32,000 bases of DNA from Candidatus Saccharimonadota bacterium (lineage in GTDB: Bacteria; Pseudomonadota; Gammaproteobacteria; Johnevansiales; Johnevansiaceae), in assembly GCF_000300075.1 (NCBI RefSeq), contig NC_018677.1, positions 150,001 to 182,000 on the forward strand, read 5' to 3'. A program made the translations under genes and the position numbers. Below the pieces are notes generated by a model, which saw only the letters and a list, made by a program, of their open reading frames with translations, was not told the origin of the DNA and did not search any database. Position 1 is the first letter of the stretch, and every line of letters starts with the position of its first letter. Positions 1,589 through 32,000 of this stretch are shown one piece after another.

Positions 1589-1946
1589 TACACTTCTTTG
1601 CAATTTACATCAATTAAAAGTTACTGTCTTGATTATTGTAGTTATGTTTGTTAAATAAAAAAATGTTGTATAAAGTGTAAAAGGCTCTTATAAAAGTTTG
1701 TTAAGTTAAATTAAGTCATGTTGAATTTATATAATATATTAATTATTAAAAATTAATGGATTTTTAAGTTACTAGATGGTTCATTTCTATATTTTTTTTG
1801 TTAGATAATTTTCGTTTTTATGCTGTTAGAGACTTTGTGTTAGTTGTGATTTTTATGTTGTTATTTATTAAAATCTGTTTTAAATTTTAGAGTTTTGAGT
1901 TTAGAGGTTTGTTTTAAAGCTTTTAGAGGTTAGTTTTTAAAAGATA

Positions 1947-2136
1947 AAAGATTAAAGATTAAAGATTTTAGAGTTTGTAGTTTGTAGTTAGAGGTTAGAG
2001 GTTAGAGGTTAGAGTTGTTAGGTTAGTGGTTCTTGGTTCTTGGTTAGTGTTTAGTGTTTAGTGGTTAGTGGTTGTGGTTGTGGTTGTGGTTGTGGTTGGT
2101 GTTGTGGTTGGTGTTAGTGTTAGTGTTAGTGTTAGA
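1947..2136. repeat. compound microsatellite tract of 6-7-nt units
   Basis: Read directly: (AAAGATT)3, (GTTTGTA)2, (GAGGTTA)3, (TGGTTCT)2, (AGTGTTT)2, (GTGGTT) about 5 copies interleaved with GGTGTT, then (AGTGTT)3-4. Confidence 0.9.
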
Positions 2137-2634
2137 GTATTGCTGGAAAAAAAAGAAGAGATGGTGTATTAAAACTATATGTAAAAAAATAATACATTGG
2201 TAAGAAACAAAAAAGTTATATGTTGTAATAGTTAGATGCGAGAATTGTTATGTTAAATGGTGTGTAAATGGTTTGTTTAAGAGTTGAAACAAAATTGTTT
2301 TTTTTCGCTAAAGAATTAAAAGACTTGTTCTTATACGGTTGTATGTATTAATATGTAATATTATATAGTTATTTCAGGTAATGTTAATTAATGTTATGTT
2401 AAAAAATGTATAATTTAGTATTTGAGGTAAGGTATGTTATATATAGAAAGGTAATAGAAGTGTTTGAGGTTATATGTCTTATGTAAAAAAGTTTGTGCTT
2501 TTAAATTAGGTTTAATGCTGTAGGTTAAGAATATGATTAAAAGTTGTATTTATATAAAGTTGAAGAAAAGAAGTGTGTGGTGTAAAAAGAAAGGAGAGGT
2601 ATAAGAAGAAAAGAAGTGTGTTGGTTATGTGTTA

Positions 2635-2723
2635 AGTTTGGTTGTAGGATGTGAGAAATAAAAAACAAAAGAGTTTGGTTGTAGGATGTGAGAAATAAAA
2701 AACAAAAGAGTTTGGTTGTAGGA
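2635..2723. repeat. 37-bp tandem repeat, 2.4 copies
   Basis: AGTTTGGTTGTAGGATGTGAGAAATAAAAAACAAAAG is identical at 2635-2671 and 2672-2708. A partial third copy lies at 2709-2723. Confidence 0.95.
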
Positions 2724-2865
2724 AAAAGGTTTTGTGGAAAGCTGTGATAGGAGTGGAGAAGAAGCAAAAGTGTTAAAAGTTATTATTTGTTATAGGCAAT
2801 TAATTAATTTAAAGTTGAAATTTGTTAAAGGCTAAGTCTTTTGATAGCAAACATTGTATAAAATT

Positions 2866-4898: not shown

Positions 4899-5878
4899 AC
4901 TTTTAAAAATTTTTTAATAGATTTTTTTATAAATTCAAAATTTTTTGCTTTTGTTGTTAACAGATTCTTTACTATATTTTGCTTTTGTTAAACCGTTTTC
5001 TCAAACTTTTTCACTTTTAATACTTTTATCTATTACTTATTCACTTTTAACTTGTTTAGTACAACACTTTGTTTCTCATTTTGCCATTTATACTTTCTTT
5101 TTGTTATGTTCTGTTAAACTTTTACTTAAATTGGTCTTTATAACATAATCTTTTTTTTATTTCTTGATTTGAATTTAGTTTTTTTATAAATTTTACCTTA
5201 TTTTACTTTTTATTGGGTTTTATATACGTGTCTATTTGCCTGATGTTAACATATCTACATTGTTGTTTATTTTATTGTTTTACAATATACACCACTTTTC
5301 ATCATACAATATAAGTTTTATTCAACTTGATAACTCATACAATATAAGTTTTATTTTATACCTATTACAAAACCTATATTACACATCATTTCATTTAACA
5401 ATTTTTCAACACTTTTCTTATAACTCATACCATCATATACAACATATTCTTTTTTCCATTCCTATGAATACATCCGTTTATATAATAACCTATTTAACAA
5501 ATCAACCTTTTATCCACTAATACCTACCTTATAACACATATATTATACAATACATTACTTATAACACATCTACTTTTCTTTTCACTTTTTATATAACATC
5601 TAATTTTAAATTTAACGAAGTTACCAGCATAACAACTATTTTAAAAAACATATAAAATAAATAAAAGATCAACAATTATCAAATACACAACTATTTCTTA
5701 ACAAATAAACCTTTTACATAAACCATTTTTTCATATAGCATTTGCCTATTAAACACAAACCTTTTACACACAACAAAAAAATTTACTATTTAAAACTAAC
5801 CCACAACCTCATAAAAACATAAACAAACTACTACTAAACCCTAAACTACAAATCAAAACCTTTACATCAAACCAACAC

Positions 5879-5955
5879 CTCTAATTTTTATTGTTGTACT
5901 ACTTTAACACTTAACAACTCTAAAATTTATTGTTGTACTACTTTAACACTTAACA
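5879..5955. repeat. 39-bp tandem duplication (2 copies, 2 mismatches)
   Basis: CTCTAA(TT/AA)TTTATTGTTGTACTACTTTAACACTTAACA occurs at 5879-5917 and at 5918-5955. Confidence 0.9.
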
Positions 5956-6003
5956 CCAGAACTTAAAATCATACAAATCATTTTCCTAACACACAACTTT
6001 ATA

Positions 6004-6066
6004 AACTTCAAACTTCAAACTTCACAATTCACAATTCACAATTCACAACACACAACACACAACACA
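6004..6066. repeat. compound heptamer microsatellite (AACTTCA)3(CAATTCA)3(CAACACA)3
   Basis: Read directly from the sequence: three adjacent blocks of three copies each. Confidence 0.95.
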
Positions 6067-6682
6067 CAATACAAATTCATATCAACCATTACAACACACC
6101 TTTTCATTAGTATAGCATTACTCCTAATACAAGTTCATAATTAGTATTATAACATAAGCCATCAAAATATAAGCATATCACATAATACACAACAATATAA
6201 AATCATTTGTTTTAAAAAAAACAACAACGCCCATATTACACAATATTATTTAAACAACACAAAAAAAAGAACCTAAGAGCATAAAAAGAATAATCAAAAA
6301 ATGACCAAACAACACAATTTTTTACTACACATAATACAACAATGTTACAATCACAACACATTAAGCAAGCTCAAACACAAAGCAAATAATACAAAACACG
6401 ATTACAACGACACATAACAGTACACAAAAACTCACAAAATGCATAACAAATAAACCATCAAGTACAGAAAGCAGAACAACTAAAACATTTAACCTAAGTG
6501 CTAAACACATTTACACAAATAACCAAATAGTTATCATTTAATATTTAAATTGGTAAATACAAAAAACAACGGTATAATGCAAATTTTTAAATTAACTACA
6601 AAACAAATAAATATTAACCCACAAACACTTTTACACAAAATTTTTATTAACGAAATACATATTTTCTAACAAAACAACAATT

Positions 6683-6759
6683 CATAAACCATAAACCATA
6701 AACCACTAACCACTAACCACTAACCACTAAACACTAAACACCAAACACCAAACACCAAA
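6683..6759. repeat. compound heptamer microsatellite (CATAAAC)3(CACTAAC)3(CACTAAA)2(CACCAAA)3
   Basis: Read directly. Eleven contiguous 7-mers, with successive blocks differing by 1-2 substitutions. Confidence 0.95.
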
Positions 6760-6966
6760 CTAACTTCTTTAAACAATCATATAACTACTTTTCCTTTTAT
6801 TTATTTAACAACAAGTATTTATCAACAAGAAGTTTTAACCAAAATCGTAACACATAATACTAAACATAATTTTAAAAACCAGTTAAGTTACACAAATAAG
6901 CTAAAAATAAAAGCTTTTAAAACATACATCTTTAAAGTAAATATGTGAATAAAGATTTAACATAAC

Positions 6967-7040: not shown

Positions 7041-7219
7041 TATTCATACCTTGTATAATTATTATAGTTATATGTGTCTGCTCTTACGGTTACATAATAG
7101 AATAGCTTGTGTTTCTTAAAGTTAAAGATAAATGCATTTGCGTACTTATAATATTGTTGCGTGATACTTTTTTGATTGATGCATTTTTGTTGTTATGGTT
7201 TTACTTTTATATATATTTT

Positions 7220-7265
7220 TTTTATGTTTTATGTTTTATGTTTTATGTTGTTGTTGTTGTTGTTG
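7220..7265. repeat. microsatellites (TTTTATG)4(TTG)6
   Basis: Read directly from the sequence. Confidence 0.95.
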
Positions 7266-7626
7266 ATATATGTATTTTGTTTTTTATTTTTGATTTAGGT
7301 TGTTATCTTATGTGTATGTTTTATTTATGGTATATGTATTTTGATATTTGCTTTAGATATTGATTTATTTTGTTTACTTTGATATGTTGTATATTTACTG
7401 TTCTTCTTTATGTTATATTTATTTTTCTTTTTTTGTATATATTTTAAATATATGTTTTTTAAAAGTTTTTGTTATTTTTAAACCATTGATGTTCGTTAGT
7501 ATTTGTTTCTCTTGTTTACTGTTACTGTATTGTGCTTTTAGTTTTTGTTTTAAACCTGCTTTTATTTGTTGCTGTATGTGCCTTTTTCGCTTTATTTTTT
7601 TTATCTTTGTATTCCTGCTTATGTAT

Positions 7627-7684
7627 GCTGTTGCTGTTGCTGTTGCTGTTTGATGTTTGATGTGTGTTTTGTGTTTTGTGTTTT
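7627..7684. repeat. compound microsatellite (GCTGTT)4(TGATGTK)2(GTGTTTT)3
   Basis: Read directly. GCTGTT is the same hexamer family (phase-shifted GTTGCT) as the array at 23585-23704. Confidence 0.9.
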
Positions 7685-7995
7685 GTATTCCTTCTTGTGT
7701 GTGTTATGTATGCTGTTTGTGTTTTGTAATATGTTTGTATTTCTCATCGTTATGTACGTTGTTTTATGTTACGATTTTTGTTGAAATTTGTTTTGTTTTT
7801 CTTTTATTAATTTAGAGTAAAGTTGTATATTGATTACAAAAAAAAATGTATAACGTGAAATATAAAAAATAGTATGTTTAAGATGTGTATGGTGTAGATT
7901 GTTGTTGTTAAATTGATTATAGCAGTAGCAGTAGCAGTATTTGCAAAAAAAAAATAGCGAAAAATGTAAGTATAAGCAAAAATATGTTATATGGT

Positions 7996-8068: not shown

Positions 8069-8075
8069 TAGAAGG

Positions 8076-8720
8076 CTAAAAAAAATAGAAAGATAAACGA
8101 AGAAGATAAATAGAATCTGGTATACGTTCTGGATCAAAAAAAGTTGGTTTAAAACAAAGATCTCTATTAATATATAAAAAGCCTTTTCCTGTATATAAAA
8201 ATTGATTTAAAGTAAAAATATGTCTATGTGCACTATAAAACAGTGGATTTTTAATGGTTATTTTTCTTTCTTTAATTAAAGACGTAGGTATGTGCAAAAA
8301 TTGTCCTTTATTTACAAAATGGAAAATTCCTATATTATAGAGAGTTTTACTAATTTTAATACAACTAAGTATATAAGAATAGTTATAATCAAACCAAGCA
8401 CCTAAAGCTAATGCTTTTAACTTTGAAAGAAGTAAAATAGGGATATTAAAAATACATGAAATACCTTTACAAATACATTTTATTTTTTTTATATTAGTTC
8501 TATCTCCTATAGTTGTACCACAACTAATATAATTTATTTCTGATAAATCAATTTGTGTTTTATTTAAAATGCTTTTTAAAAATAAAAAAAACAAAACATT
8601 GTTTGTAGAAATATTCTTCTTATAAAAACATAGCTTGTTTATAAGAATCTTGTTTTTTAATGTATATAAAGACATAGAAAAATACGTATAAGATATATCT
8701 AATGATAAAAAATTTTTCAT
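8076..8720 (-). CDS. tsaB: probable tRNA t6A biosynthesis protein TsaB (YeaZ)-like, highly diverged
   Basis: 214 aa. Collinear weak similarity to E. coli TsaB: FLSLDISYTYFSMSL versus ILAIDTATEACSVAL, and DLSEINYISCGTTIGDRTNIKKIKCICKGIS...LKALALGAW versus [31 protein letters not shown]...LMTMAQGAW. The GPGSFTG motif is degraded. Confidence 0.5.
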   Translation of the reverse strand: MKNFLSLDISYTYFSMSLYTLKNKILINKLCFYKKNISTNNVLFFLFLKSILNKTQIDLSEINYISCGTTIGDRTNIKKIKCICKGISCIFNIPILLLSKLKALALGAWFDYNYSYILSCIKISKTLYNIGIFHFVNKGQFLHIPTSLIKERKITIKNPLFYSAHRHIFTLNQFLYTGKGFLYINRDLCFKPTFFDPERIPDSIYLLRLSFYFF

Positions 8721-8740
8721 TTGTTTATGTTAGTGATTAT

Positions 8741-9853
8741 TTAACAAACAATCCAATTACGAATATCAGTTAATAACTTAATTATAAATTTAATAAACTT
8801 TGCTGCATAAACGCCATTTATAAATCTATGATCATACGAGAGACAAATTGGTAACATTGTTGTTGGTTTAAATTGTTTACCAGTCCAAATAGGTTTAATG
8901 TTTGTTTTGCCAATGCCTAAAATTCCTATTTCTGGACTGTTAATGATTGGAGTAAAACCTTTACCACCTATTATTCCTAAATTAGATATTGTAAAACAGC
9001 CACCCATCATATCATCTAGTTTATTTTTACCTATTAATGTTCTTTTAGTTATTTCTTTTAATTCTAAAGCAATATCAATGATATTTTTTTTATCAACATG
9101 TTTTATTACGGGCACTAACAAACCTTTTGATGTATTTATAGCAATGCTAATGTTATTATGGCTTGATTTGTGAAAATTACGTTTATTTGTTTTTAAATCC
9201 AACAACATATTAAACTTAGAAAATTTTTGTAATGCACAAGAACATACTTTTATAAAAAAAGATAATAATGTTATTTTAATACCTAATTCATATTTTATTG
9301 TTTTTCTAAACTTTTCTACTTTTGTTATATCTAATTCATCAAAATGAGTTACATGAGGTATATTTCTCCAACTATTATGTAACTTTTTAGCACTTACACT
9401 TAATATATTCTTTACGTTTTGATCAGTGTTGTCTTCTGAACTCTCTATTCTCTTATCTTTTATATAACTTTTTAAATCTTCTTTTAAAATACAATTTTTC
9501 TTTCCACTTCCGATTATTTTGTCTGTTTCTAAATCAATACCTAATTTTCTTGCCATTAATTTTGCAGCAGGACCCGCCTGTGCAATACTTTTTTCTTTAT
9601 TTAAAATAACTTTTTTGTTTATAATGTCTTCTAATTCCATTATTGACTTACCCGAATATATGTTTTCACCTTCTTTAATTAAAATTTTAGTTATTGTTCC
9701 TTCGTTTGGTGAAGGTAAATCAATAGTAGCTTTTTCTGACTCTAAAACAACTATAGTGTCATCTTTTTTTATAAATTCTCCTACTTTTACGGGTATTTCT
9801 ATAACTTCAACTTTTTTATTTATATCACCTATTTCAGGTAGCTTTATTATCAC
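8741..9853 (-). CDS. aceF: dihydrolipoamide acetyltransferase, E2 component of pyruvate dehydrogenase (single lipoyl domain)
   Basis: 370 aa. It has a lipoyl domain with the lipoyl-lysine context VLESEKATIDLPSP, an E3-binding domain (AGPAAKLMARKLGIDL), and a catalytic domain with the SYDHRFINGVYAAKF (DHRxxDG-type) motif. It lies directly downstream of aceE. Confidence 0.9.
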   Translation of the reverse strand: MIIKLPEIGDINKKVEVIEIPVKVGEFIKKDDTIVVLESEKATIDLPSPNEGTITKILIKEGENIYSGKSIMELEDIINKKVILNKEKSIAQAGPAAKLMARKLGIDLETDKIIGSGKKNCILKEDLKSYIKDKRIESSEDNTDQNVKNILSVSAKKLHNSWRNIPHVTHFDELDITKVEKFRKTIKYELGIKITLLSFFIKVCSCALQKFSKFNMLLDLKTNKRNFHKSSHNNISIAINTSKGLLVPVIKHVDKKNIIDIALELKEITKRTLIGKNKLDDMMGGCFTISNLGIIGGKGFTPIINSPEIGILGIGKTNIKPIWTGKQFKPTTMLPICLSYDHRFINGVYAAKFIKFIIKLLTDIRNWIVC

Positions 9854-9868
9854 TCAAAACCTTTCCTT

Positions 9869-12595
9869 TTATAAAGTTAATGGATTAATTTTTTTAGTAT
9901 TTATATCATATTTTGTTAAAGCTTTTTTTATAATAGACATATCTATTATTCCTTGGTTATGTAATGATTTTAAAGAAATTATTGTTATAAAATAACGATC
10001 TACTTCAAAAAAATAGCGTAATTTTTTCCGAGTATCTGATCTGCCATATCCATCTGTACCCAAAACATAATAATCATTTGGTACCCAAGCACGTACTTGA
10101 TCTGCATAAAGTTTTATATAATCTGTGCTTGCTATAACAGGGCTATTATATTTTTCTAAACATTTTGTTATCCATGGTTTTAGTGGAATTTGTGTTTCAC
10201 ACCTTAAAATGTTTTTTCTATCAAGTTCTACTGCTTCTCTTCTTAACTCATTAAAACTTGTCACACTCCACACATTAGATTCAATATTAAATTCATTTTT
10301 TAAAATATCAGATGCGTATTCTACTTCACGCAAAATGCTACCTGAGCCTAATAATTGTACTTGCAATTTTCTATTATTGTGTTTTATTTTAGTATATTTT
10401 TTTTGTGATGTATTTTTATACAACTTACTTTTGTTGTTTTTTTTGTTTGTTTGATGTAGTAAATACATTCCACGTATAATACCTTCTTTACAGTTGTTTT
10501 GTTTTTTTTGATGTAAATACTTTTCATTCATTAAACTTATATAATAATAACACTTTTCTTTATTTACATACATTTTTTTAAGACCATATTGCAATATAAC
10601 AGCTAATTCATAAGAATATGTTGGATCATAAGAACGACAACTTGGTATGATTGATGCTAAAACTTGACCTTGCCCGTCTTGATGTTGTAAACCTTCTCCG
10701 TTTAATGTTGTTCTCCCTGATGTACCTCCTAATAAAAATCCTCTTGATTGCAAATCACCGGCTGCCCAAGCTAAATCCCCTACTCTTTGAAAACCAAACA
10801 TTGAATAATAAATATAAAACGGTATTAATGTGTAACTATGATTTGCATAAGATGTTGCTGCGGCAATCCAACACGACATAGATCCAACTTCATTTATACC
10901 CTCTTCAATAAGTTGACCTTGTTTATCTTCTTTATAGTAAATCAATTTTTCTTTATCCATTGGTAAATACTTTTGTCCTTCTATTGAATAAATTCCTACT
11001 TTGCTAAACATAGTTTCCATTCCAAAAGTTCTAGCTTCATCTGGCAAAATAGGTACTATTCTTTTCCCTATATTTTTATTTTGCATTAAACTATTAATTA
11101 TACGCACACAAACCATTGTGGTAGAAACTTTTCTATTTCCTATATTATTTACAATTTTTTCAAAAATTGTCTTTTCCAAAGACTTAATATTCAATACAAA
11201 CAAACTTTCATTCCGTTTCGGTAAATATCCATTAAGGTTTTTTCGGCATTTGTGAATATATTTTATTTCTGGTGAATCTTCATCTGGTTTATAAAAAGGT
11301 ATATTATTTGTTTTTATCTTTTCATTTGTTATAGGAATTTCAAATTTATCTCTAAACCTTTTTAAGGCATTATAATCCATAGTCTTTACATTATGAGTTT
11401 CCATGCTTGATTCAAATTTATAAATACCATAACCTTTTATTGTGTGTGCTAATATAACTGTGGGTTTTCTATATGAATTATTCACAGCTTCATAATAAGC
11501 TGCATATATCTTTTGAGGATCGTGTCCACCTCTATTAAGATTTGAAATTTCTTTATATGATAAATTTTTCACCAAACTTGCTGTGTCTTTATATTTTCCA
11601 AACAACTGTTCTTTTGTATATTTGCCCCCTAAAGCTTGATACCTTTGATAATCCCCATCTACTGTATCATTTATACATTTCTGTAAAATTCCTTTCTTAT
11701 CGTGTTCGAATAACATATCCCAGTCACCTCCCCACACAACTTTAATTACATTCCAATTCGCTCCTTTAAATATTTGTTCTAATTCATCAATTATTTTACC
11801 GTTTCCACGCACTGGCCCATCTAATCTTTGTAGGTTACAATTTATCACAAATATCAAATTATCTAGTTTTTCTCTGCTTGCAACGTTAATTGCTCCTATT
11901 GTTTCTACCTCGTCACATTCCCCATCTCCTACAAAAGCCCATACTTTTCTATCTTTCATATTTTGTATACAACGGCAATCCATATATTTCATCAATCTAG
12001 CTTGATATATAGCCTGTAAAGGCCCGAGTCCCATAGAAACAGTGGGAAACTGCCAATACTTTGGCATTAAATATGGGTGGGGATATGCAGAAAGGCCTTG
12101 TCCTTTTATTTCTTTTCTAAAATTATTTAACTGATTTTCGGTTAAACGACTTTCTAGATAAGAACGTGCATATATTCCTGGAGCTACATGTCCTTGAAAA
12201 TATATTAAATCTCCTTCAAACTTATTATTTTTTCCTCTAAAAAAATGATTAAATCCTACTTCGTATAAAGTACAACTTGACATATAACTGGATATATGTC
12301 CCCCTAAATTGTTTTTTGTATTCGCTCTTATTATTAATGCTATCGTGTTCCACCTAACGGCAGACCTGATTTTTCTTTCCAAATATTTATTTCCTGGATT
12401 TCGTTTTTCACAACTTTTTGGTATTGTATTTTTATAATCATTATAATCTTTATTTAAAATATTGTTTTTAATTATATATTTCTTCTTTACATAATTTTTC
12501 ACTAAACTTTTTACCCTATACATACCCTCTCGATCCATGACCCTCTGTCTATTCTCCTTTTCTGTTCTCTGCTTTCTTATATATGATTGCTTCAT
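9869..12595 (-). CDS. aceE: pyruvate dehydrogenase E1 component
   Basis: 908 aa, collinear with E. coli AceE (887 aa): RSAVRWNTIALI, GGHISSYMS, YFQGHVAPGIYARSYLE, FVGDGECDE, NLQRLDGPVRGNGKII and VQLLGSGSILREV. It carries one extra Lys/Asn-rich segment. Confidence 0.95.
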   Translation of the reverse strand: MKQSYIRKQRTEKENRQRVMDREGMYRVKSLVKNYVKKKYIIKNNILNKDYNDYKNTIPKSCEKRNPGNKYLERKIRSAVRWNTIALIIRANTKNNLGGHISSYMSSCTLYEVGFNHFFRGKNNKFEGDLIYFQGHVAPGIYARSYLESRLTENQLNNFRKEIKGQGLSAYPHPYLMPKYWQFPTVSMGLGPLQAIYQARLMKYMDCRCIQNMKDRKVWAFVGDGECDEVETIGAINVASREKLDNLIFVINCNLQRLDGPVRGNGKIIDELEQIFKGANWNVIKVVWGGDWDMLFEHDKKGILQKCINDTVDGDYQRYQALGGKYTKEQLFGKYKDTASLVKNLSYKEISNLNRGGHDPQKIYAAYYEAVNNSYRKPTVILAHTIKGYGIYKFESSMETHNVKTMDYNALKRFRDKFEIPITNEKIKTNNIPFYKPDEDSPEIKYIHKCRKNLNGYLPKRNESLFVLNIKSLEKTIFEKIVNNIGNRKVSTTMVCVRIINSLMQNKNIGKRIVPILPDEARTFGMETMFSKVGIYSIEGQKYLPMDKEKLIYYKEDKQGQLIEEGINEVGSMSCWIAAATSYANHSYTLIPFYIYYSMFGFQRVGDLAWAAGDLQSRGFLLGGTSGRTTLNGEGLQHQDGQGQVLASIIPSCRSYDPTYSYELAVILQYGLKKMYVNKEKCYYYISLMNEKYLHQKKQNNCKEGIIRGMYLLHQTNKKNNKSKLYKNTSQKKYTKIKHNNRKLQVQLLGSGSILREVEYASDILKNEFNIESNVWSVTSFNELRREAVELDRKNILRCETQIPLKPWITKCLEKYNSPVIASTDYIKLYADQVRAWVPNDYYVLGTDGYGRSDTRKKLRYFFEVDRYFITIISLKSLHNQGIIDMSIIKKALTKYDINTKKINPLTL

Positions 12596-12604
12596 TTTTC
12601 CTTC

Positions 12605-13480
12605 TTATATTACTTCTAACGATTTTAATGTTTTTAATAACGGTTTCTTATACTTTGTTGCTAACCATGTTAACGGTAATCGTATTCCTTTTTTTACTAA
12701 CCCCATTTTTTTTAATGCCCATTTTACTGGTATAGGATTTGATTCAAGACTTAAAGCATAATGTAATGGCATTAATTCTTTGTTTAGTTTATATGCTAAT
12801 TCTATCTTGCCTTTACTTGATGCTATACATAATTCATGCATCAGTTTAGGTACTATATTTGATGTTACAGAAATTACTCCATGCCCACCTGCTAATATAA
12901 ATTCACAAGCGGTACTATCATCACCTGACAACAAATAAAAATCTTGTTTTTTATATTTTTCAATTAATTCTAATGCTCTTGCTAAATTTCCTGATGATTC
13001 TTTAATTCCTACTATGTTTTTTATCAAAGATAACTTTAAAATTGTTTCATTATTTATATCTACACCTGTTCTTTTTGGAACATTATAAACGATAATAGGT
13101 AACCCTACCGTTGCTACTTCTTTAAAATGGTTATACATCCCATATTGAGTTGGCTTGTTGTAATATGGCGTTACTGATAATCCATATTCAGCGCCTGCAT
13201 CTTTAGCCATTTTTGTTAACTTTACGGCCTCTATTGTAGAATTTGCTCCAATTCCCGCTATTACAGAAATTTTTTTATTAACTTCCTTAACTACTGTACG
13301 TATAACTTTTCCATGTTCTTCTAATGTCATTGTAGTGTTTTCACCTGTAGTTCCAGCTGCTAATATTGCATCTGTTTTATTTTCTAAATGAAACTTTACT
13401 AAATTTCTTAATGAAGCCCAATCTATTACACCATTTTTTTTCATTGGTGTAACAATTGCTACGATACTTCCCCTAATCAT
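12605..13480 (-). CDS. dapA: 4-hydroxy-tetrahydrodipicolinate synthase
   Basis: 291 aa, collinear with E. coli DapA: [55 protein letters not shown] and NPIPVKWA. Confidence 0.95.
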
Positions 13481-14650
13481 ATATTAACCTCTTTATTTAA
13501 AATATTATTTGTCAATTACAAGCCTACTTTTCTTTTTCGAGCAAATAACTAACATATTTTAACTTTTTGTAAATATTATTTATGCCGTATACATACAGCC
13601 ACTTTATTAGAATATACAATTGCCTTTTGTATTAATTTTTGATTCTTTTAACCTTTATTTTTAATTGTTGTATAACAACTAATTTTTGTATATAAATAGG
13701 TTCTTTTTTATTTAGTGGTATGTTATTTCTTCTGTGTTTTATGATATCTGTTTAATCTTTTCATCTGTATGATTTTTGCTTTCTGTTTTATATGTTTTTC
13801 TTTTTACTTTTTATCTGTTAGATGTTTATTTCTTTGATGTTTGATGTTTGATGTTTGATATTCTCTTTTTTCTTTGCCGTTTGTTGTTTTTTGTTTTGAG
13901 GTTAGTTATTAGAGGTTTGTTTTTTTTGATGTTGTTTGTAAGCTGTTAGAGGTAAGTTTAACTATGTTGTATCTTTTGTTAAATAGTTATTAGATGTTGT
14001 AGGATTGTTGTTAATTTATTAGATGTAAGAATTTAGATGTTGTAGGTTTGAGGTTTGATTTATTAGATGTTAAAATGTTAAATTAGTTGCTTTTTATGTT
14101 TGTTAGTTGTTAGAGGTTTGTTGAATTAGAGTTTATATGGTTTAAAAGAGTATTGTTTTTAGAAGTTTGCTTTCTTATTAGTTTTAGATATTGTTAGTTA
14201 TTGTGTTATATTAAAGAGTTTTGAAATTAATTTATTAGATGATGATGTTTGAGCTTTGCTTTATTGTTTGTTAACTGTGTATTATTAAACTAAATATACA
14301 ACATTTAAATCAATATTGTGTGGTTAGAGGAAAAACATTTGAAATTAAGAATAAAGGTATTAGAGGAAAGTTAAAAAGAAATTGTTTAAGGAATGTATTT
14401 TGTGTTTAAAGTTAGCCGTTTATAAGTTTTGTGTTTTGTGGTTAGTGTTAGAAGTTAGATAATTTGTGTTTATGTGATAGCTGTTATAATTCTAGAGATC
14501 TTGTTGTTATGTTTTGATATTTTTTGTGCTTACAATTTAGTTTTTGAGGTGTTGTTTGAGCTTAATTTTAATAATTTGTATTTTTTTTGTATTTCTTCTT
14601 TTATCTTTGTACAACTCTTTAATTTTCTTTTTAATTACTACAAACTTACA
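13481..14650. other. non-coding spacer arm, C-depleted (G/T/A-rich) on the + strand
   Basis: Hand count finds no C in 13974-14089. The motifs TTAGATGTT and TTAGAGGTT recur. There is no credible ORF. Confidence 0.85.
13835..13855. repeat. microsatellite (TGATGTT)3
   Basis: Read directly from the sequence. Confidence 0.9.
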
Positions 14651-16517
14651 AACAACAAGAAACAAATCAACCTCTAACAACTAACAACTAACAACTAACA
14701 ACTAACTACTAACTTCTAAATCCTAAATCCTAAATCCTAAATCCTAAATCCTCTACTAACTAACAACTAATAAAAGCAAACCTTTTAACCCTTTTAACAA
14801 CTTTTACTCTAAACTCTAACAATCCAACATCTAAACCATCTAAACTAGCTAACTTCTAATAATTAATAAAACAACCTCTTTTTTACCACCTCTCATCAAC
14901 AAACCTACAATTTTTCTTTTTTTTTATCAACATCTACTTAACCACTTTCAAACTATTTACCTACAACTCTTTCTACTATCCTCTAACCTTTTGCTACAAC
15001 CAATTACCTCTAATTAATTACACTCTATTCCTTTCTTTTCTTACAACACTACTTTTTTTTTTCAAAACTTCCCTATTATAACTTTTATACAACATCATTT
15101 TTTATATCTTACCTCTAACATTATTTGTTACTAATACAACATATAACTTAGTCTCAAAATAAATAAACAAACCTCTAATTTAAATAACAAATAACAGATA
15201 AGAAAACAAACCTCTAACCGTTAATAAATAAACTACAAATAAAACATCTATTTAATATACAATTTTATACAAATTATGCTTTATATATACAAACTACAAA
15301 CTCAAATTAAACAGCATCTAAATTAACTGTTTTTAATACAACTTATAGGGATATATATGAACTAATAAGAAAAACCATAATATAATACAACAACTAACAA
15401 AAAAGAATAATAAACCTCCACTATACAATATATAAATTAGAGCAACAACAATAAACAACTCCATAACATATAAACTCAAACAAGCAAAAAAAACAAGGCT
15501 ATAACATACACCATCAACTGAATAGAATAACATTATACAACACATTATTTAATAAGGCATACAAAAGTTATAAAAGTATATAACATAAAAGCAGAAGAGC
15601 AGAAAAGCAGAAGAAAAAAAGCAAGAAAAACCATCAAACTCTTAAAAAACATCAGAACTCAAACATACAAAATAAAAAGTAAAAAACATATAAAAACTCA
15701 AACATACAAACTAAAAAAAATAAACGACATCTAAATTCTAATTTCTAAACTCTAAAAGCTTAACAACATATTAAAATACATATATTAAGCATAAAAAAAA
15801 AGAAACAGAAAACTTAAACGCATAAGCGGAAAACATATTCTAATATAAGATTTAATACAAACCAAAAGAAAGAAATCATATTTAAATACTAACAACAAAG
15901 CACGTAAAGTGTACATACTAGCAAATATAATCAATAAAACAAAAAACCAACTAATTATAAACCTACATAACTAATAATCCTAACTATTATGTATATAAAT
16001 AAAACAACAATAATTCATAAAACACCTATCACTTATAACCTAACATAATATAAATACCAACATATACATAATAAAACAAAAACCTCAAAAACATAATGCT
16101 CAAACTATAACTTATATAAACAAAGAAATAACAAAATAAATAACAATCTAAACTAACAAACAAAATGATAACTTATAAAACACAATCATATAAAGAAAAA
16201 GAAAGTAAAAAAAATCAATCATAAACACCGACCATTTATCCTAACAACAAAACTTTTAACTTAAGCATAATAACAAACCCATTTAACAACATCCATGTAA
16301 ACAAATACATTTAACACAAAATAATAATAATGAAACCTAACTACAAAACCAATATCAAAGTCTTTTAATTACTTTTATTTTATTGAAAATGAACCTTAAT
16401 TAATCATAAAGATAAAAAGCTTAAGCATTAAAAAACTTTCAACAATTTATCTTTCAAACCCAATCCAATGAGAACGTTAGTAAATCTGTTAATTTTTTAA
16501 GCAAAACAGATACTATT
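14651..16517. other. non-coding spacer arm, G-depleted (A/C/T-rich) on the + strand
   Basis: Hand count finds no G in 14660-14775, 14849-14992 or 14994-15126. It carries reverse-complement versions of the motifs seen in the left arm (AACATCTAA, AACCTCTAA). Confidence 0.85.
14674..14750. repeat. compound heptamer microsatellite (CTAACAA)4 CTAACTA CTAACTT (CTAAATC)5
   Basis: Read directly. It lies just right of the polarity switch at about 14650. Confidence 0.95.
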
Positions 16518-18062
16518 TTAACAAACTTCAAACATTGTTATATGTCTATATTTTTGATCTATAGAATTTATATAACATTCAATACGATCATTAAGTTTAT
16601 ATTTTAGATGATAGTAATGGGATTTTGTAACAAAAAGAGTAAAAAACTTAACGAATGTATCAAATTCTGAATTAAAGTCCGTTATGGAGATAATAGTTCC
16701 ATTTAGTAAAGATCCTTTATAATTGAAAAAAGATAGTATTGGATCTTGTTTTAAATGTTTAATACTTAAAGAAATACGCTCTCTCTCTGGGTCAATAGAC
16801 AAAATTCTTGTTTCTATTGTATCGCCTTTACGATAATTCTTACGTATGGATTTTTCATCTAAATCTTTCCATGATATATCTGAAACATGTACCAACCCAT
16901 CAATACCGCCATTTAAACCTACAAAAATACCAAAATCAGTAATAGATTTAACAATACCATTAACACGATCATTTTTCTTGTATTTTAAACTAAAATTCTC
17001 CCATGGATTTAGTCGACATTGTTTTATACCTAAAGAAATTCTTCGTCGTAATTCATCTATTTCTAAAATCATTACTTCTACTCTTTCACCTATACTTACG
17101 AGCTTAGACGGATTTATGTTTTTATTAGTCCAATCTAATTCTGAAACGTGCACCAAACCTTCTATTCCATCTTCTATTTCAGCAAAACAACCATATTCTG
17201 TAATGTTTGTTATACACGCTTTTACTTTTATACCAACAGGATAACAAGTTTTAACCTTTTTCCAAGGGTCGTCACTTAATTGTTTAAGGCCTAAAGAAAC
17301 ACGATTGCGGTCAATATCGATTCTTAAAATCTTAACTTCAATCTCATCACCTAAAGAAACAATTTCAGATGGATGTTTAACACGCTTCCAAGCCATATCA
17401 GTGATATGAAGCAACCCATCCATACCGCCTAGATCGATAAAAGCACCATAATCTGTTATATTTTTAACTATACCTTTAATGGACTTAGAAATAAATTGAT
17501 CTGAACTTATATTTTGTTTTAAAATATCATTACCTATTTCTAAAACAGCTCTTCTAGAAACTACAATATTTTTTCTTTTTTTATCTATCTTTATTAATTT
17601 AAAATCAATATATTTTTTTTCTATGTGTAATGTATCCCTAATAGTGCGGATATCTACTAATGACCCTGGCAAAAACGCGCGTATAGAGTTAATATCTACA
17701 GTAAAACCACCTTTTACCTTTCCAAGAATTATACCTTTTACCACTTCATTGTTATTAAAAGCTTTTTCTAAATTTTTCCATTTTTCTAATCTGTTAGCTT
17801 TTTCACGAGATAACCGCGTTTCTCCAAAACCATCTTCTAATGTCTCAATTACTACATTTATTCTATCACCTATTTTTAAAAACACGTCATCTTTATCATT
17901 TTTAAATTGATCAATATTAATTTTTACTTCTGATTTTAAACCTGCGTTAACTTTTATCCAATCTTTGTCTATATAAACGATTTTTGCTTTTATTATAGAT
18001 CCTGGCTTTAGATTGATCTTGTTTAGTGACTTTTCGAACAACTCAGCAAAGCTTTCGCTCAT
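16518..18062 (-). CDS. rpsA: 30S ribosomal protein S1
   Basis: 514 aa. The N-terminus MSESFAELFEKSLNKINLKPGSII matches E. coli [24 protein letters not shown]. S1 domains repeat (ITDYGAFIDLGGMDGLLHITDM, ITEYGCFAEIEDGIEGLVHVSEL, ITDFGIFVGLNGGIDGLVHVSDI). The last domain is degenerate and the acidic C-terminal tail is missing. Confidence 0.95.
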   Translation of the reverse strand: MSESFAELFEKSLNKINLKPGSIIKAKIVYIDKDWIKVNAGLKSEVKINIDQFKNDKDDVFLKIGDRINVVIETLEDGFGETRLSREKANRLEKWKNLEKAFNNNEVVKGIILGKVKGGFTVDINSIRAFLPGSLVDIRTIRDTLHIEKKYIDFKLIKIDKKRKNIVVSRRAVLEIGNDILKQNISSDQFISKSIKGIVKNITDYGAFIDLGGMDGLLHITDMAWKRVKHPSEIVSLGDEIEVKILRIDIDRNRVSLGLKQLSDDPWKKVKTCYPVGIKVKACITNITEYGCFAEIEDGIEGLVHVSELDWTNKNINPSKLVSIGERVEVMILEIDELRRRISLGIKQCRLNPWENFSLKYKKNDRVNGIVKSITDFGIFVGLNGGIDGLVHVSDISWKDLDEKSIRKNYRKGDTIETRILSIDPERERISLSIKHLKQDPILSFFNYKGSLLNGTIISITDFNSEFDTFVKFFTLFVTKSHYYHLKYKLNDRIECYINSIDQKYRHITMFEVC

Positions 18063-18170
18063 AATAATCCTACATGATTAACGATTTTATATTTCCGTAC
18101 TATAAGTAAACTTTAAGCACGACCCATATTATATTAAAATATTTTATTCAATTAAGCTACTGATCTTTCC

Positions 18171-19490
18171 TTAATATTTAACTTCTTTTATGTTTATACC
18201 CAAAGTAGTTAATAAGAGGTTAAAATTAGGAAATGAAGTAGAAACATTTGTACAGTCATCAATAACAATAACATCAGTTGCTTTTAAAGCAGCAATAGTA
18301 AAAGACATAGCAATGCGATGATCTCCATAACTATTAATACATCCCCCTTTATAAACTTTAGTACCAAATATATCAATTCCATCTTCGTATACACTCGTTT
18401 TAACCCCAATTGTTTTAAAACCTTTCGCCATTGCACTAATTCTATCGCATTCTTTAACTCTTAATTCTGATGCACCTCGCAACCTAGTAATGCCTTCTGC
18501 ATTAGCAGCTGCTACTAATAGTATAGGTAATTCATCAATAGCTAAAGGTACTTGATTGAGTGGTATGTCTATGCCTTTTAGCTTTGCATATTTTATATTT
18601 ATATCTGCCACTGGTTCATTGCAATAAATCTTTTCATTTAATAAGTTTATATCAGCACCCATTTTACGTAAAATATTAATTACTCCAATACGAGTAGGAT
18701 TTATTCCTACTTTTTTTAATAACAAATCTGAATTAGGTATTATAGAAGCTGCTACTAAAAAAAAAGCAGCTGATGAAATATCCGCTGGTATTTTAATTTT
18801 ACTTGCTTTTAATTTTGAGCCCCCTACTAAAGAAATAGTATTCTCTTTTTGTTTTATCTTATATCCAAAACTTTTTAACATACGTTCTGTATGATCTCTT
18901 GTGCAACCCGGTTCTATTATTTTTGTTTCACCTTTTGCATAAATTCCAGCTAATAATAAACAAGATTTTACTTGTGCGCTTGCTATTGGCATAATATAGT
19001 TTATTCCCGTTAGCCTATTACCAAGTATTTTCACAGGAGGTACACCGTATTTATCAGTTTTAATTTTTGCACCCATTAATCTTAGTGGGATTGCAACTCT
19101 ATTCATAGGTCGTTTATTTAAAGAAAGATCTCCAGTCAATTTAGTATCAAATTTTTGTCCTGCTAACAAACCAGTCAACAACCTCATACTTGTGCCTGAA
19201 TTACCTAAATATATATTTTTTTTTGGATTTTTTAATCCATATATTCCCGCTCCTGAAATACATAATATGTTTTGTTTAGGCCCATAAATTTCAACTCCCA
19301 TTTCTCTAAATGATTGTAATGTTGATAAACTATCATATCCATCTAAAAAACCAGTAATCTTTGTGAGACCAGTAGCTAACGATCCAAACATCAGTGCCCT
19401 ATGAGAAATAGATTTATCACCTGGAACAATTATTATTCCCTTAATTGGTTTAATTGCTCTTTGTACTATATACTTAACTTTGTTTTTCAT
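18171..19490 (-). CDS. aroA: 3-phosphoshikimate 1-carboxyvinyltransferase (EPSP synthase)
   Basis: 439 aa with PGDKSISHRALMF, LGNSGTSMRLLTG, RPMNRV, ASAQVKSCLLLAG, RVKECDRI and YGDHRIAMSF, which are canonical AroA motifs. Confidence 0.95.
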   Translation of the reverse strand: MKNKVKYIVQRAIKPIKGIIIVPGDKSISHRALMFGSLATGLTKITGFLDGYDSLSTLQSFREMGVEIYGPKQNILCISGAGIYGLKNPKKNIYLGNSGTSMRLLTGLLAGQKFDTKLTGDLSLNKRPMNRVAIPLRLMGAKIKTDKYGVPPVKILGNRLTGINYIMPIASAQVKSCLLLAGIYAKGETKIIEPGCTRDHTERMLKSFGYKIKQKENTISLVGGSKLKASKIKIPADISSAAFFLVAASIIPNSDLLLKKVGINPTRIGVINILRKMGADINLLNEKIYCNEPVADINIKYAKLKGIDIPLNQVPLAIDELPILLVAAANAEGITRLRGASELRVKECDRISAMAKGFKTIGVKTSVYEDGIDIFGTKVYKGGCINSYGDHRIAMSFTIAALKATDVIVIDDCTNVSTSFPNFNLLLTTLGINIKEVKY

Positions 19491-19495
19491 ATTAC

Positions 19496-20575
19496 TTATA
19501 TTCTCTTAGTTAATTGTTCTGGAAATGAACCTAATATTTTAAGTTCTGCACCACGCAGATAAATTTCTTCTAAAGTTTTTTCTACTAATTTAGATTTACG
19601 ATGTCCTTTTATTTCTAAAAAAATTATGTAGTTCCAAACTCCTTTATTCTCTGGTGCAGGTCTAGTTGTTAAGCGTAAGATATTTATGTTATAACGATAA
19701 AAGGGTTCTATTAACAAATAAAAAGAACCTATTTGATTGTTTATATATATCATCAAATAAGTCTTATCATAACCTGTTGGTGCAACATCTTTATCAGACA
19801 ATATTAAAAATCTTGTATAATTATTTATACGATCTTCTATATTTTTAGCAAGTTTAATTAAAGAATAATAACTAGCAGCAAGATCTCCAGCAATTGCCGC
19901 ACTATTTTTTTTATATTGTGTTAAATTTGAAGCTTCTGCATTAGAAGCCACTGCAATTTTTTTTGCATTTGGATAGTTATTTTTCAACCAATCTCTACAC
20001 TGAGAAAATGATTGTTGATGCGAATAAATCTTGTCTATGTTTTTATTTATATTCTGTTTATCAATCAACAAATGATGATGTATAGATAATATTATTTCAC
20101 CACATATTTTTAAGTTTGAACTAATAAATGAATCAAAAGTATTATTCACTATGCCTTCTGTTGAATTTTCTACTGGTACAACCCCATAATTATATATTTT
20201 GTTTTCTATTGTTCTAAACACATCTTTAACGGGTATACTTTTTATTGATTTACCAAAATATTTTAATACTGCTTGTTGGGTAAAAGTGCCCTCTGGACCT
20301 AAATATGCTACTTGACTTTTTTTTTTAAACTTTAAACAAGCCGATACAATAGATTTAAAAATTTTAGATAATACTTTATTAGACAGTGGTCCTTTATTAC
20401 TTGTTTTAATACTATAAAAATACCGGTCTTCATGACCATTGTTATAACTACAATTTTGTTTATCGTCTGCCAATTGAATTTGTGAAACCAATTTAGCACG
20501 GTGACTAATTAACTTTAATATTTGATAGTCAATATTACCAATGTATTTTATATAGGGTTTAAATTTTTTGTTCAT
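19496..20575 (-). CDS. pheA: bifunctional chorismate mutase / prephenate dehydratase (P-protein)
   Basis: It has an N-terminal chorismate-mutase helix region (IDYQILKLISHRAKLVSQI), a prephenate dehydratase domain (VAYLGPEGTFTQQA, GVVPVENSTEGIV, YSHQQSFSQCRDWL, NYTRFLIL) and a C-terminal ACT-like domain. I place the start at ATG 20575 (MNKKFKPY), because the longer ORF to 20665 would overlap the gyrA 3' end. Confidence 0.9.
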   Translation of the reverse strand: MNKKFKPYIKYIGNIDYQILKLISHRAKLVSQIQLADDKQNCSYNNGHEDRYFYSIKTSNKGPLSNKVLSKIFKSIVSACLKFKKKSQVAYLGPEGTFTQQAVLKYFGKSIKSIPVKDVFRTIENKIYNYGVVPVENSTEGIVNNTFDSFISSNLKICGEIILSIHHHLLIDKQNINKNIDKIYSHQQSFSQCRDWLKNNYPNAKKIAVASNAEASNLTQYKKNSAAIAGDLAASYYSLIKLAKNIEDRINNYTRFLILSDKDVAPTGYDKTYLMIYINNQIGSFYLLIEPFYRYNINILRLTTRPAPENKGVWNYIIFLEIKGHRKSKLVEKTLEEIYLRGAELKILGSFPEQLTKRI

Positions 20576-20579
20576 TTTT

Positions 20580-23105: not shown

Positions 23106-23135
23106 ATATTTTGTTTTATTTTTTGTTAACTTCAA

Positions 23136-28844: not shown

Positions 28845-29918
28845 ATTTTTTTACCTTTTTAACAAATTTTATTTTTTATCACAACTTACCCATACCTTTA
28901 CTCATTCCTTTCAGATTTTAGCAACTTTAACAACAAGCCTTTTTAACTGCTTTAATAACTATTTTTTATAACTACAATTCCTATTACATAGTTTTTGTTT
29001 TATTTATTTCATATAACATAAAGTTTACAAATCATTACCACATATTACTTTTTTCAGATCTTATAAAAATAACCTTACAACTGTTTAAGTTATTACAACA
29101 AACTAACACATTATCTAGTTCTCTTTTTATTATCATAATAAAAAACTACCGTTTTACAACAAACTAAACTAACACATATTACTTTTTCCTTTTATACTTT
29201 CATAACGGCCTTTATTCAAATGTTCCTTTTTTTAGAACATATCTTACACTTATCACAAACTACGCCTCACTTCCTTTAAACTCGCATAACAACTTTTACC
29301 TATACTCATATTTTTTTCGTTTATCATATTGTATTTTAACTCTATGTCTTAACAAAAAACTTTTGGCATAAATAAACTACCACTTAACCTTTAACAACAA
29401 CCAAATACTATCTTTTAACATCAATTTAATCTATCGCATAAACACTACACCATTTCCTTTTTGTTATATACAAACTTTTACTTTATTTTAGCATTTACCT
29501 ATTAAACACCTTTACTACAAACTATACTTCTAATACCAATCCTCTTACATACTTCTTTACGCTTCAACTACCCTTTTTAACCATTTATACATGCCGTTAA
29601 TAACACAATACAACTAGTTTTACTATATACTAACAAACACCACACCGTTTAACACAAATCAAACTACACTGCCCATCAAACATCAAAATCTACTTGTTAC
29701 CAGCTTACATACATATTACACAAAAACACAAAACATAAATGCTTGCACAAAAACACCTTTACCTATCACCTCTTTTATTTTTCATAAAAACAAGTTATAT
29801 AAACAACTTTAGCTGTTAACATTTAACCATTTAACTATACATTAATATAACCAATATACCGTATAAAACAAAGATAAAACATAAACACATCAAAAACCAA
29901 ACATAAATTATAAATTAT

Positions 29919-29974
29919 CTAACTGCTAACTGCTAACTGCTAACATCTAACATCTAACATCTAACATCTAAAAA
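29919..29974. repeat. compound heptamer microsatellite (CTAACTG)3(CTAACAT)4 CTAAAAA
   Basis: Read directly from the sequence. Confidence 0.95.
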
Positions 29975-31262
29975 ATAACCTTTATTATCTAACATCTACC
30001 CTTTTAAACAAAGCATCAAACAGCTATTAACAAACACAACACTATCAATCTATCATATTAAAAACAGCTAACACGTTTTATCTTTAACAAATACAACTAC
30101 ATTTCATAATATAAAATCATAAAAATAGATTGTTTTACACAAAAACAGCAAATACAAAATAAAACTATTATGTTGTAATACAACTAACAATACTTCTAAA
30201 AAAAAAACTACATTTTATAGAAACACAATAAACTACAACACAATATTAAATAAGTTTAATACGAAATACCAAATAACTTTGATAGTTTTGTGTACAACTT
30301 TATCTGTTAACAATTAAATTTTAACAAACCACAACACATAATACCAAGCAGCAAAGCCCAAACTGATACTAATGTTTTTTAGCGATAAACTTTTTTAATT
30401 ATAAATATTTTTTTAGCAAACAGCCTAAAATCAAAACAATTTTCATAACTGCTTACACAACTCATCCTACATCCTACCAGCAATACTGCTTGCACTTTTA
30501 CATAACACACTTTTTTTTTAAACAGCTCAGCATGTTTGCTTTTTTTTTTACAATAGCTTCACTTTTAGTCAGTCTAAATTTAAATATAACCTTTTTAAAG
30601 ATCCTACACCATTAAAGATACAACTCTAATAAATTTCATATAACCTTACATTAGTTACAGTACAAAATATAAATTACAAAACTTGTAACCGATTTAAATA
30701 CATTACAAAATTTAAACATAATATGGCATAACTGACTTCACCACATATAACGTAATATAAGTTTTTTAAAAAATAAACAAAAGAACATATTTTATTAAAC
30801 ATTTATACAACAATTTTTAACATATAACCTTAGTCATATACTATAAACTAGTGTGTATAAAAAAAAAACAGTAAAGCACAAATTTTAGAATACAATTTTC
30901 AATTACATTACCTAATACACACCAACATAAACTTTTAAACAAAAAAAATATATATTCCTGCAAAACCTTAATTTCTTGCACAATTTATTTTTTATAATAT
31001 ATATAATATTTACACTTATCTATACCTCATCCATTATGTACCAGCTCGTATAATTTCATACAGACCTATTTTTTTCCCTTAATAACATATACAGCCATAC
31101 TCCTGTATTATACACAATATTTTTATACAACTTCTTTGCTCTCTATACATTATTTAAATAACTATGTTATAAGATACACAACCGTTAACATACATCTAAT
31201 ACCCGTATTATATATAACCTATACCAATTAGCAATTAGCCGTGCTCTTACTAATCCAGCACA

Positions 31263-31316
31263 CAACTAACAACTAACAACCAACAACCGCTAACCGCTAA
31301 CCGCTAACCGCTAATG
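31263..31316. repeat. compound microsatellite (CAACTAA)2 CAACCAA CAACCG (CTAACCG)3 CTAATG
   Basis: Read directly from the sequence. Confidence 0.9.
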
Positions 31317-31508
31317 CATTACATATCCACAAAATTACAACAATTAGCATATTACAGACATAAAAACATAAAATACTATAACTTAACAAAGATGATTCAG
31401 CCTACAACATTATTCTAATTATTTTTTGTTTAACTAGCATAACTTAAATAAACTTTTCATGTAACATACACTTTAACACAATAATAAACTATAAACGCCT
31501 GTATACCA

Positions 31509-31562
31509 ATTTTTTGCATTATCTAATAGTTAGCATACCTATTTTTTGCATTATCTAATAGT
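31509..31562. repeat. 22-bp direct repeat, 32-bp period
   Basis: ATTTTTTGCATTATCTAATAGT occurs at 31509-31530 and at 31541-31562. Confidence 0.9.
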
Positions 31563-32000
31563 CTTGAATCTATTAACCATCATAATTTTTCAATATGTAG
31601 TATGTAATATATGCTTTGAGCTTTATGTATCGCTGTTTGCTGTTTGCTGTTTTTCTTTTAGGTGTACACATTTCCTATTCTTTATATAAAAATTTTTGTG
31701 TTGTTCAAACAACTATTTCTTTCTGTCTTTTATATAATAACTATAAATTAGTAAATAACATACATATAAGCGAATACCATAGCTACTATTTAACCTACCT
31801 ACTTTATTTAACAAATACAACTTATATTACCTACTTTATATAACATATTTAATAGATTTTAAAACTCATAAAACATAAGAATACTTAAATACTTGTGTAT
31901 AATTTTTAGGAATATAAAAGAAAAGAAAACAAAGAAAGTACAAAAGAATAGTAAAAACATATTAGTAACAAACAGTTAAAATGTAATAACAGTAAATAGT

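Follow-up and report, generated by a model that had tools for sequence, protein, structure and literature searches.

The 3,037-bp spacer between dapA and rpsA (positions 13481-16517) in a 32-kb window of the genome of Candidatus Portiera aleyrodidarum from Bemisia tabaci, the primary endosymbiont of this whitefly, is non-coding DNA made of 7-nt repeats whose copy number continues to rise and fall among strains. It consists of two opposed tracts that meet at position 14589, and in each of them one strand is composed almost exclusively of T, G and A. Here the window means the whole 32-kb stretch of DNA analyzed, and all positions refer to it. The spacer was probably produced by the joining of two oppositely oriented heptamer tracts, each amplified by slippage, through a rearrangement or through a local inversion or inverted duplication. 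No sign of a function for the spacer was seen, and its main consequence appears to be that it provides a substrate for further slippage and rearrangement.

The strand composition of the two arms establishes that the polarity switch is real and sharp. On the forward strand, G and C make up 19.6% and 4.6%, respectively, of positions 13700-14580, and 1.6% and 23.5% of positions 14660-15340. The cumulative G-C count reaches its maximum at 14589, after which the junction zone holds only isolated G residues, at 14609 and 14659. The longest C-free run of the left arm is 116 nt and the longest G-free run of the right arm is 144 nt, compared with runs of at most 45 and 67 nt, respectively, in 12 kb of neighboring coding DNA. 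An earlier interpretation made from the letters alone (the sequence-only reading) had placed the switch near 14650, ~60 nt to the right of the computed position, and had called the arms C-free and G-free. While their purity is indeed strong, this description was overstated, given the residual C of the left arm (4.5% up to 14589), the mixed composition of 13481-13700, and the base content of the distal stretch at 15340-16517 (5.9% G, 54% A). The 181 nt from 14520 to 14700 are identical in six of six independent B. tabaci Portiera assemblies, which excludes a misjoin and shows the junction to be invariant in the strains sampled. Divergence between the clades is 1.7-2% in the rest of the spacer and predicts about 3 differences in this segment; the 0 seen may be due to chance.

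A period of 7 recurs throughout the spacer in the output of Tandem Repeats Finder (TRF). Consistent with this, the excess in base identity at lags 7, 14 and 21 was 0.102, 0.059 and 0.047 in 13700-14590, and 0.110, 0.075 and 0.044 in 14591-15340. The distal part of the right arm (15341-16350), with a lag-7 excess of only 0.028 and lower purity, looks older. The youngest arrays, (CTAACAA)n and (CTAAATC)n, lie directly to the right of the junction and differ among strains by 7-, 7- and 21-bp insertions or deletions (indels) at ~14720-14752, and a (TGTTTGA)n array in the left arm likewise varies in length (Table 1). Among six strains, nearly all indels fell within spacers, 7 bp was the most common size above 1 bp, and sizes of 7, 14 and 21 bp all occurred, an excess that matches the published spike of 7-bp indels in this lineage (PMC3673631). 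The spacer is 100% identical to that of CP016304.1 and 98.0-99.7% identical to those of five other B. tabaci Portiera assemblies, in which its length ranges from 3,005 to 3,063 bp, while the DapA protein shows no differences among six complete or near-complete B. tabaci Portiera genomes. No open reading frame (ORF) in the spacer exceeds 70 aa, and a scan of the window at the Rfam gathering thresholds returned four tRNAs only, with zero matches in the dapA-rpsA spacer. Independent short-read (Logan) contigs (L016-L019) all end 389-404 nt upstream of dapA (13869-13884), near the (TGTTTGA)n array.

The two arms are related to each other in inverted orientation. Relative to dinucleotide-preserving shuffles of each arm, inverted k-mers shared between the arms were in excess at k=10 (145 vs. 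76.8±16.1), k=11 (81 vs. 27.6±8.9), k=12 (47 vs. 9.3±4.8) and k=13 (29 vs. 3.9±3.2), while k-mers shared in direct orientation numbered 18, 6, 1 and 0. This comparison with a composition-matched shuffle is the one on which the sequence-only reading had staked its claim of two head-to-head domains of the same repeat family, and the claim survives it; period 7 in both arms and the related heptamer arrays further support it. Its motif coordinates were also exact, with TTAGAGGTTTGTT at 13909 and 14110, the reverse complement of this motif at 15166 and 15205, and AGAATTTAGATGT at 14028 matching 15727. The exception was AACATCTAA, described as frequent in the right arm, which occurs there once, at 14826; the 7-mer CATCTAA has four occurrences. 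The longest perfect inverted repeat is 19 nt (TTGTTAGTTGTTAGAGGTT in the left arm and AACCTCTAACAACTAACAA in the right), and its copies are 550 nt apart. A histogram of the inverted matches by antidiagonal had no dominant bin, the top bins holding 13-20 matches against 95th percentiles of 12-19 under the permutation null. The scatter of the matches over many antidiagonals indicates that the arms do not form a palindrome.

Polarity and purity are not peculiar to this spacer, since five further strand-pure tracts in the window (1589-2864, 4899-6966, 7041-7995 and two within 28845-31336) share its motif family, and the words TTAGAGGTTTG and GTTAGTTGTTAG of the arms recur in other spacers. When oriented by their G-rich strands the spacers share 11-mers, and in the opposite orientation they share almost none. 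In total, ~5 polarity switches occur in ~39 kb. One of these lies beyond the window, near L026:6100 in the 4.8-kb cspA-aroC spacer (L026:5221-10000; window 28845 to ~33620), and is divergent, passing from C-rich to G-rich. The mixed-composition middle of the cspA-aroC spacer shows, on inspection, dense stops in all six frames and no recognizable gene remnant. Units that contain both G and C can also be amplified, as seen in (AACCGCT)4.3 at 31285-31314 and (CAGTTG)20 at 23583-23703, so that purity is a tendency rather than a rule. The latter array, which also reads as 5.9 copies of the 18-mer GTTGCAGTTGCCGTTGCC, is located between gyrA and secA and, unlike the heptamer tracts, carries G and C on one strand.

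Comparison with other Portiera suggests how the spacer and its setting arose. The genomes used included those of Portiera of P. mori (PeMo), Portiera of Singhiella simplex (SiSi), and a relative, ENA ERZ27294174, in which rpsA and dapA are 86% and 91% identical to those of the window. The gap between tRNA-Val and tRNA-Asp is 7-12 bp in PeMo and SiSi and 955 bp here, that between rpsF and rpsR measures 17 bp in PeMo as opposed to 2.6 kb in SiSi, and the gyrA-pheA and rpsA-groEL gaps of 22 and 48 bp in a compact relative have become 3 kb and 2.6 kb, respectively, in SiSi; dnaX and dapA overlap in the compact Portiera PeMo. These tiny gaps imply that the spacers grew de novo, and not by gene decay. 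In agreement, a tblastn search with dnaX, gnd, ABC-2, rpsF, rplI and dnaB of PeMo against the window and SiSi found no gene remnant in the spacers, and no remnant of dnaX was detectable upstream of dapA in either the B. tabaci or the SiSi lineage. The one strong match (6967-7008) is tRNA-Asp, overlapped by a mis-started PeMo ORF, and was discarded as a gene remnant.

The ancestral gene order is gnd-dnaX-dapA in PeMo, while rpsA is convergent with groEL in the compact relative and also adjacent to groEL in SiSi, consistent with a previous report (PMC7821994). Thus, rpsA and dapA were not ancestral neighbors, their adjacency is derived, and the spacer joins two ancestral synteny blocks. Of the three origins offered by the sequence-only reading, a scar of an inversion or of a fusion of two spacers is the one that best fits these findings. 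The polarity of the left arm is that of the other spacer of the dapA block (7041-7995), and the polarity of the right arm is that of the tract directly upstream of aroC. In the ERZ27294174 relative, ~450 nt of G/T-rich DNA follow rpsA before an abrupt change to A/C-rich, and the DNA upstream of dapA is also A/C-rich; the polarities beside both genes are as in B. tabaci, and the contigs that carry them (L020 and L032) do not join. SiSi has the opposite polarity at both rpsA and dapA and no switch. Beyond the 3′ end of rpsA, comparison of the B. tabaci spacer with those of the ERZ27294174 relative and SiSi gave short, family-level matches only.

Within a tract, new arrays would arise from mutated units of neighboring arrays via replication slippage. 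Because slippage would copy strand composition faithfully, polarity would be inherited along the tract instead of being imposed by regional mutation pressure, and the head-to-head layout would mark a structural junction. Such a junction might have formed when the inversions that scrambled this genome brought together the rpsA and dapA blocks, each with a tract of its own, or in a later local inversion or inverted duplication between short inverted repeats supplied by the tracts, such as the 19-mer at 14100-14118 and 14669-14687.

Several observations count against this explanation. A single inversion cannot convert the ancestral orders into the co-oriented rpsA-dapA pair. The raised similarity of the arms (38 shared 11-mers per kb2 when the left arm is compared with the reverse-complemented right arm, the background in other spacer pairs being 8-21 per kb2) is easier to reconcile with a local inverted duplication than with a fusion of unrelated spacers. 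A duplication of this kind, caused by fold-back or by a switch of template in the course of replication or of break repair, might have followed the establishment of the rpsA-dapA adjacency, with subsequent divergence of the arms by slippage. We consider this sequence of events unlikely. In its favor, k-mer sharing between the arms is 2-4 times as high as in most other pairs of spacers, and the perfect inverted repeat of 19 nt straddles the junction. The DNA downstream of rpsA in the ERZ27294174 relative likewise turns from G/T-rich to A/C-rich, and inverted matches there reach 80% over 56 nt and 92% over 24 nt. On the other hand, the inverted matches are colinear about no center, the shared words recur in other spacers, and the left arm is equally similar to the spacer at 7041-7995, which lies 5.5 kb away in the same orientation and gives the highest 11-mer sharing for this arm (40 per kb2).

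A different difficulty, for the inheritance of strand composition within tracts, comes from the comparison of lineages. The spacers of B. tabaci Portiera, SiSi and the ERZ27294174 relative are nearly identical in strand make-up (T 45-59%, G 19-24%, A 19-30%, C 2-4%) and differ in period (7, 5 and ~6-7, respectively), and the k-mers that they share are no more than composition predicts (ratios of 0.75-1.25). This sharing of composition without sharing of k-mers makes descent from one C-less seed insufficient and hints at a cause at the level of process. In addition, the substitution spectrum hints at a lean toward preserving purity. At 5,580 aligned spacer sites in six strains, the polarized changes on the G-rich strand were A>T 13, T>G 11, G>T 7, T>A 7, A>G 3, C>A 3, A>C 2, G>A 2, T>C 1 and C>T 1, i.e. 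14 gains and 9 losses of G, and 3 gains and 4 losses of C. These changes are too few to be separated from composition, and the excess of G<->T over A<->C is approximately what tract composition predicts under strand-symmetric rates (binomial P ~0.06 at best). Extending the strain comparison through aroC added no polarized substitutions, since no genomes of the outgroup clade were available there. It is conceivable, though we regard it as rather improbable, that purity reflects a strand-specific process in a replisome impaired by the loss of dnaQ, dnaX, dnaN, holA/B and ssb, in which case the tracts would record the direction of synthesis and switches such as the one at 14589 would mark the meeting of two opposed synthesis events. 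Such a process may be slippage or repair synthesis on one nascent strand only, or strand-displacement replication from many start sites.

The proposal that the switch is a site where convergent replication or transcription processes meet found no support. In its replication form, polarity would follow the local direction of the fork, and damage to single-stranded DNA in the absence of ssb and dnaQ would drive one strand toward T and G. G+T enrichment is the classical leading-strand signature, the forward-strand order from G to C is that of a terminus, three lineages have arrived at one composition without shared sequence, and the clear GC skew of other, stable Portiera was lost in the B. tabaci lineage (Santos-Garcia et al. 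2015, PMC5322561). Nevertheless, the ~5 switches include origin-like ones 7.6 kb away, and a search of the whole window for the dif consensus, allowing up to 3 mismatches, found nothing. Sense-strand GC skew at four-fold sites has the same sign in the dapA block (+0.19) and the rpsA block (+0.14 to +0.17), even though the adjacent tracts are of opposite polarity; likewise, SiSi has a skew of +0.24 in gyrA-pheA-aroA-rpsA, similar to that of the compact relative, with intervening spacers at -0.8 to -0.9 on the same strand. Four-fold sites of adjacent genes therefore differ from the tracts in polarity and magnitude, and in the dapA block they also have A equal to or above T, as opposed to T far above A in the tracts. 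Given the independence of four-fold-site skew from spacer polarity and the multiple switches, regional strand-specific mutation pressure, be it tied to replication or to transcription, does not explain the tracts and was ruled out. Together with a substitution record that is compatible with strand-symmetric rates, these results leave fork convergence very unlikely.

Still less credible is a transcriptional origin, whereby read-through from rpsA would meet an opposing transcript and transcription-associated deamination would leave the non-template strands poor in C. While G and T predominate in the right arm on the sense strand of rpsA, no terminator-like site was found after this gene or elsewhere in the spacer, and several spacers, e.g. 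rpsF-rpsR of SiSi and pnp-tRNA-Leu, are G/T-rich on the sense strand, of the spacers between co-directional genes, 4 have the sense strand as their G-rich strand and 5 the antisense strand. Furthermore, the left arm is C-rich on the sense strand of dapA, and promoter-like sites in the spacer are rarer than in shuffles (15 vs. 26.6±4.8). Finally, a very degenerate giant palindrome or an assembly misjoin, to which the excess of inverted k-mers might have pointed, can be dismissed in view of the absence of a dominant antidiagonal and of a junction that is identical and colinear in the six independent assemblies.

The locus belongs to a class that is already known. B. tabaci Portiera has unusually large, repeat-rich intergenic regions with a spike of 7-bp tandem repeats and 7-bp indels (Sloan and Moran 2013, PMC3673631), has undergone at least 17 inversions, and has lost dnaQ, dnaX, dnaN, holA/B, ssb, mutL and ruvC (PMC3673631; PMC7821994). 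The present spacer comes from the same organism and the same class of loci (PMC3673631, PMC5322561, PMC7821994), being a long gap between intact genes with 7-bp repeats and indels at a rearrangement breakpoint; it is free of genes and measures 3,037 bp, as opposed to the 48 bp or gene overlap of its compact counterparts. The locus, its class and its repeat-driven instability have thus been published, whereas the accounts of B. tabaci Portiera that we searched make no mention of a nearly C-less strand, of tracts in both orientations, or of switches inside spacers, nor did the literature searched mention the 5-nt counterpart in SiSi. The expanded spacers of SiSi (Santos-Garcia et al. 2020, PMC7821994) are likewise kilobases long and strand-pure (GC skew 0.8-0.97), and have grown in gaps that are 17-48 bp in compact Portiera. 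They differ in having a period of 5 instead of 7, in the uniform polarity of all four that were examined (L001:5300-9950, L001:15873-18503, L024:5039-7345 and L024:11600-14000), and in sharing no k-mers with B. tabaci beyond those expected from composition. Their 5-nt units include TGTTA, TGTAA and TTTGA, among others, the excess identity at lag 5 is 0.17-0.21, and one strand contains 0.7-2.5% C. This strong 5-nt periodicity runs throughout all four spacers, in contrast to the mere 3 tandem repeats listed for the S. simplex Portiera genome (PMC7821994, Table 1).

Two further systems resemble the switch in geometry. At a bacterial terminus, the GC or keto skew also changes abruptly from G+T-rich to A+C-rich on one strand; here the change is far more extreme, is restricted to non-coding DNA, occurs several times within tens of kb and is not mirrored at synonymous sites, and neither a single switch shared by neutral sites, nor a dif/XerCD site, nor a consistent relationship to the transcribed strand was found. 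At human 2q13, telomere repeats are fused head to head as (TTAGGG)n(CCCTAA)n. The similarity lies in short T/G-rich units on opposite strands that converge on a junction, including a telomere-like CCTAAAT array of 5 copies (complement ATTTAGG). The Portiera genome is, however, bacterial and circular and without telomerase, its heptamers are many and unrelated, and the cspA-aroC spacer has a divergent switch, with no recognizable gene island between its arms, which a telomere-fusion model forbids. This analogy was therefore set aside.

The spacer exemplifies a published oddity, that of an ancient endosymbiont of insects in which the loss of replication and repair genes was followed by genome instability and an accumulation of repeats. 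To this we add that the filler DNA is organized in kilobase-sized tracts that occur in either orientation, switch sharply and have almost no C on one strand, and that the sister lineage, SiSi, has built the same architecture on a 5-nt unit. If this regularity reflects the mechanism of expansion and not descent, the tracts would constitute a natural record of slippage by a minimal replisome, with bearing on the evolution of endosymbiont and organelle genomes.

Table 1. Features of the dapA-rpsA spacer, its flanks and related spacers of the window
Feature	Position	Strand	Basis or remarks
dapA (4-hydroxy-tetrahydrodipicolinate synthase), left flanking gene	12605..13480	-	Pfam DHDPS, E 1.2e-95
dapA 5′ flank, mixed composition, outside repeat tract	13481..13700	-	C 13%, G 8%
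Left domain, heptamer-derived; G/T/A-rich, C-poor strand is +	13701..14589	+	composition, autocorrelation, cumulative G-C
(TGTTTGA)n array, length-polymorphic among strains	13816..13859	+	TRF; 7-bp indels at ~13849, ~13856
Left copy of longest perfect inverted repeat (19 nt)	14100..14118	+	repeat search, 100% complementary
Junction zone, T/C-rich (pyrimidine) tract on + strand; G ends, C begins	14590..14660	.	G and C positions
Right domain, pure proximal part; G/T/A-rich strand is -	14661..15340	-	composition, autocorrelation
Right copy of 19-nt perfect inverted repeat	14669..14687	+	repeat search
(CTAACAA)n and (CTAAATC)n arrays, youngest	14674..14773	+	TRF period 7, 96-100% matches
Right domain, distal degenerate part; A-rich on +, lower purity, weak periodicity	15341..16350	-	composition, autocorrelation
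rpsA 3′ flank, mixed composition	16351..16517	-	50-nt bins; terminator-like site not detected
rpsA (ribosomal protein S1), right flanking gene	16518..18062	-	Pfam S1 x4, E 1.4e-72
Strand-pure heptamer-rich spacer, pnp to tRNA-Leu; G-rich on +	1589..2864	+	composition, TRF, autocorrelation
Strand-pure spacer, hisI to tRNA-Asp; C-rich on +	4899..6966	-	composition, TRF, autocorrelation
Spacer tRNA-Asp to tRNA-Val, grown in place; G-rich on +, opposite to tRNA-gene strand	7041..7995	+	composition; comparison with PeMo, SiSi
Start of 4.8-kb cspA-aroC spacer upstream of aroC; C-rich on +	28845..32000	-	composition

The window has a G+C content of 26-27% and contains pnp, tusE, nfuA, sufE, hisI, sucB, sucA, dapA, rpsA, aroA, pheA, gyrA, secA, leuC and aroC in addition to the four tRNA genes. 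An alignment with the ERZ27294174 relative, SiSi and PeMo shows conservation among Portiera lineages of the final ~45 nt of the dapA 5′ flank, in which AAGAGG precedes the ATG. Further upstream, at ~130-170 nt from dapA, the motif CTGTAT(GT)ATACGGCATAAA (13595-13625) is common to B. tabaci Portiera and the ERZ27294174 relative (L032:845-875); set in DNA that is otherwise unalignable, it could be a promoter element or a relic. In CM014390.1, pheA (L012:2881-3959) is divided into two ORFs of 88 and 241 aa, although it is intact (359 aa) in other assemblies; a frameshift error or decay specific to this strain would account for the difference. Transversions are by far the prevailing substitutions among strains of B. 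tabaci Portiera, with 10 transitions vs. 69 transversions in coding DNA, A<->T being the most common, and similar proportions in spacers (4458-23135 aligned with L010-L014). Such a spectrum is atypical of AT-rich endosymbionts and may be connected with the absence of dnaQ and mutL. Two perfect or near-perfect tandem duplications, at 2635-2723 (37 bp x2.4) and 5874-5955 (39 bp x2.1), vary in copy number among strains, as seen in indels of 37/71 bp and 30/39 bp, respectively.

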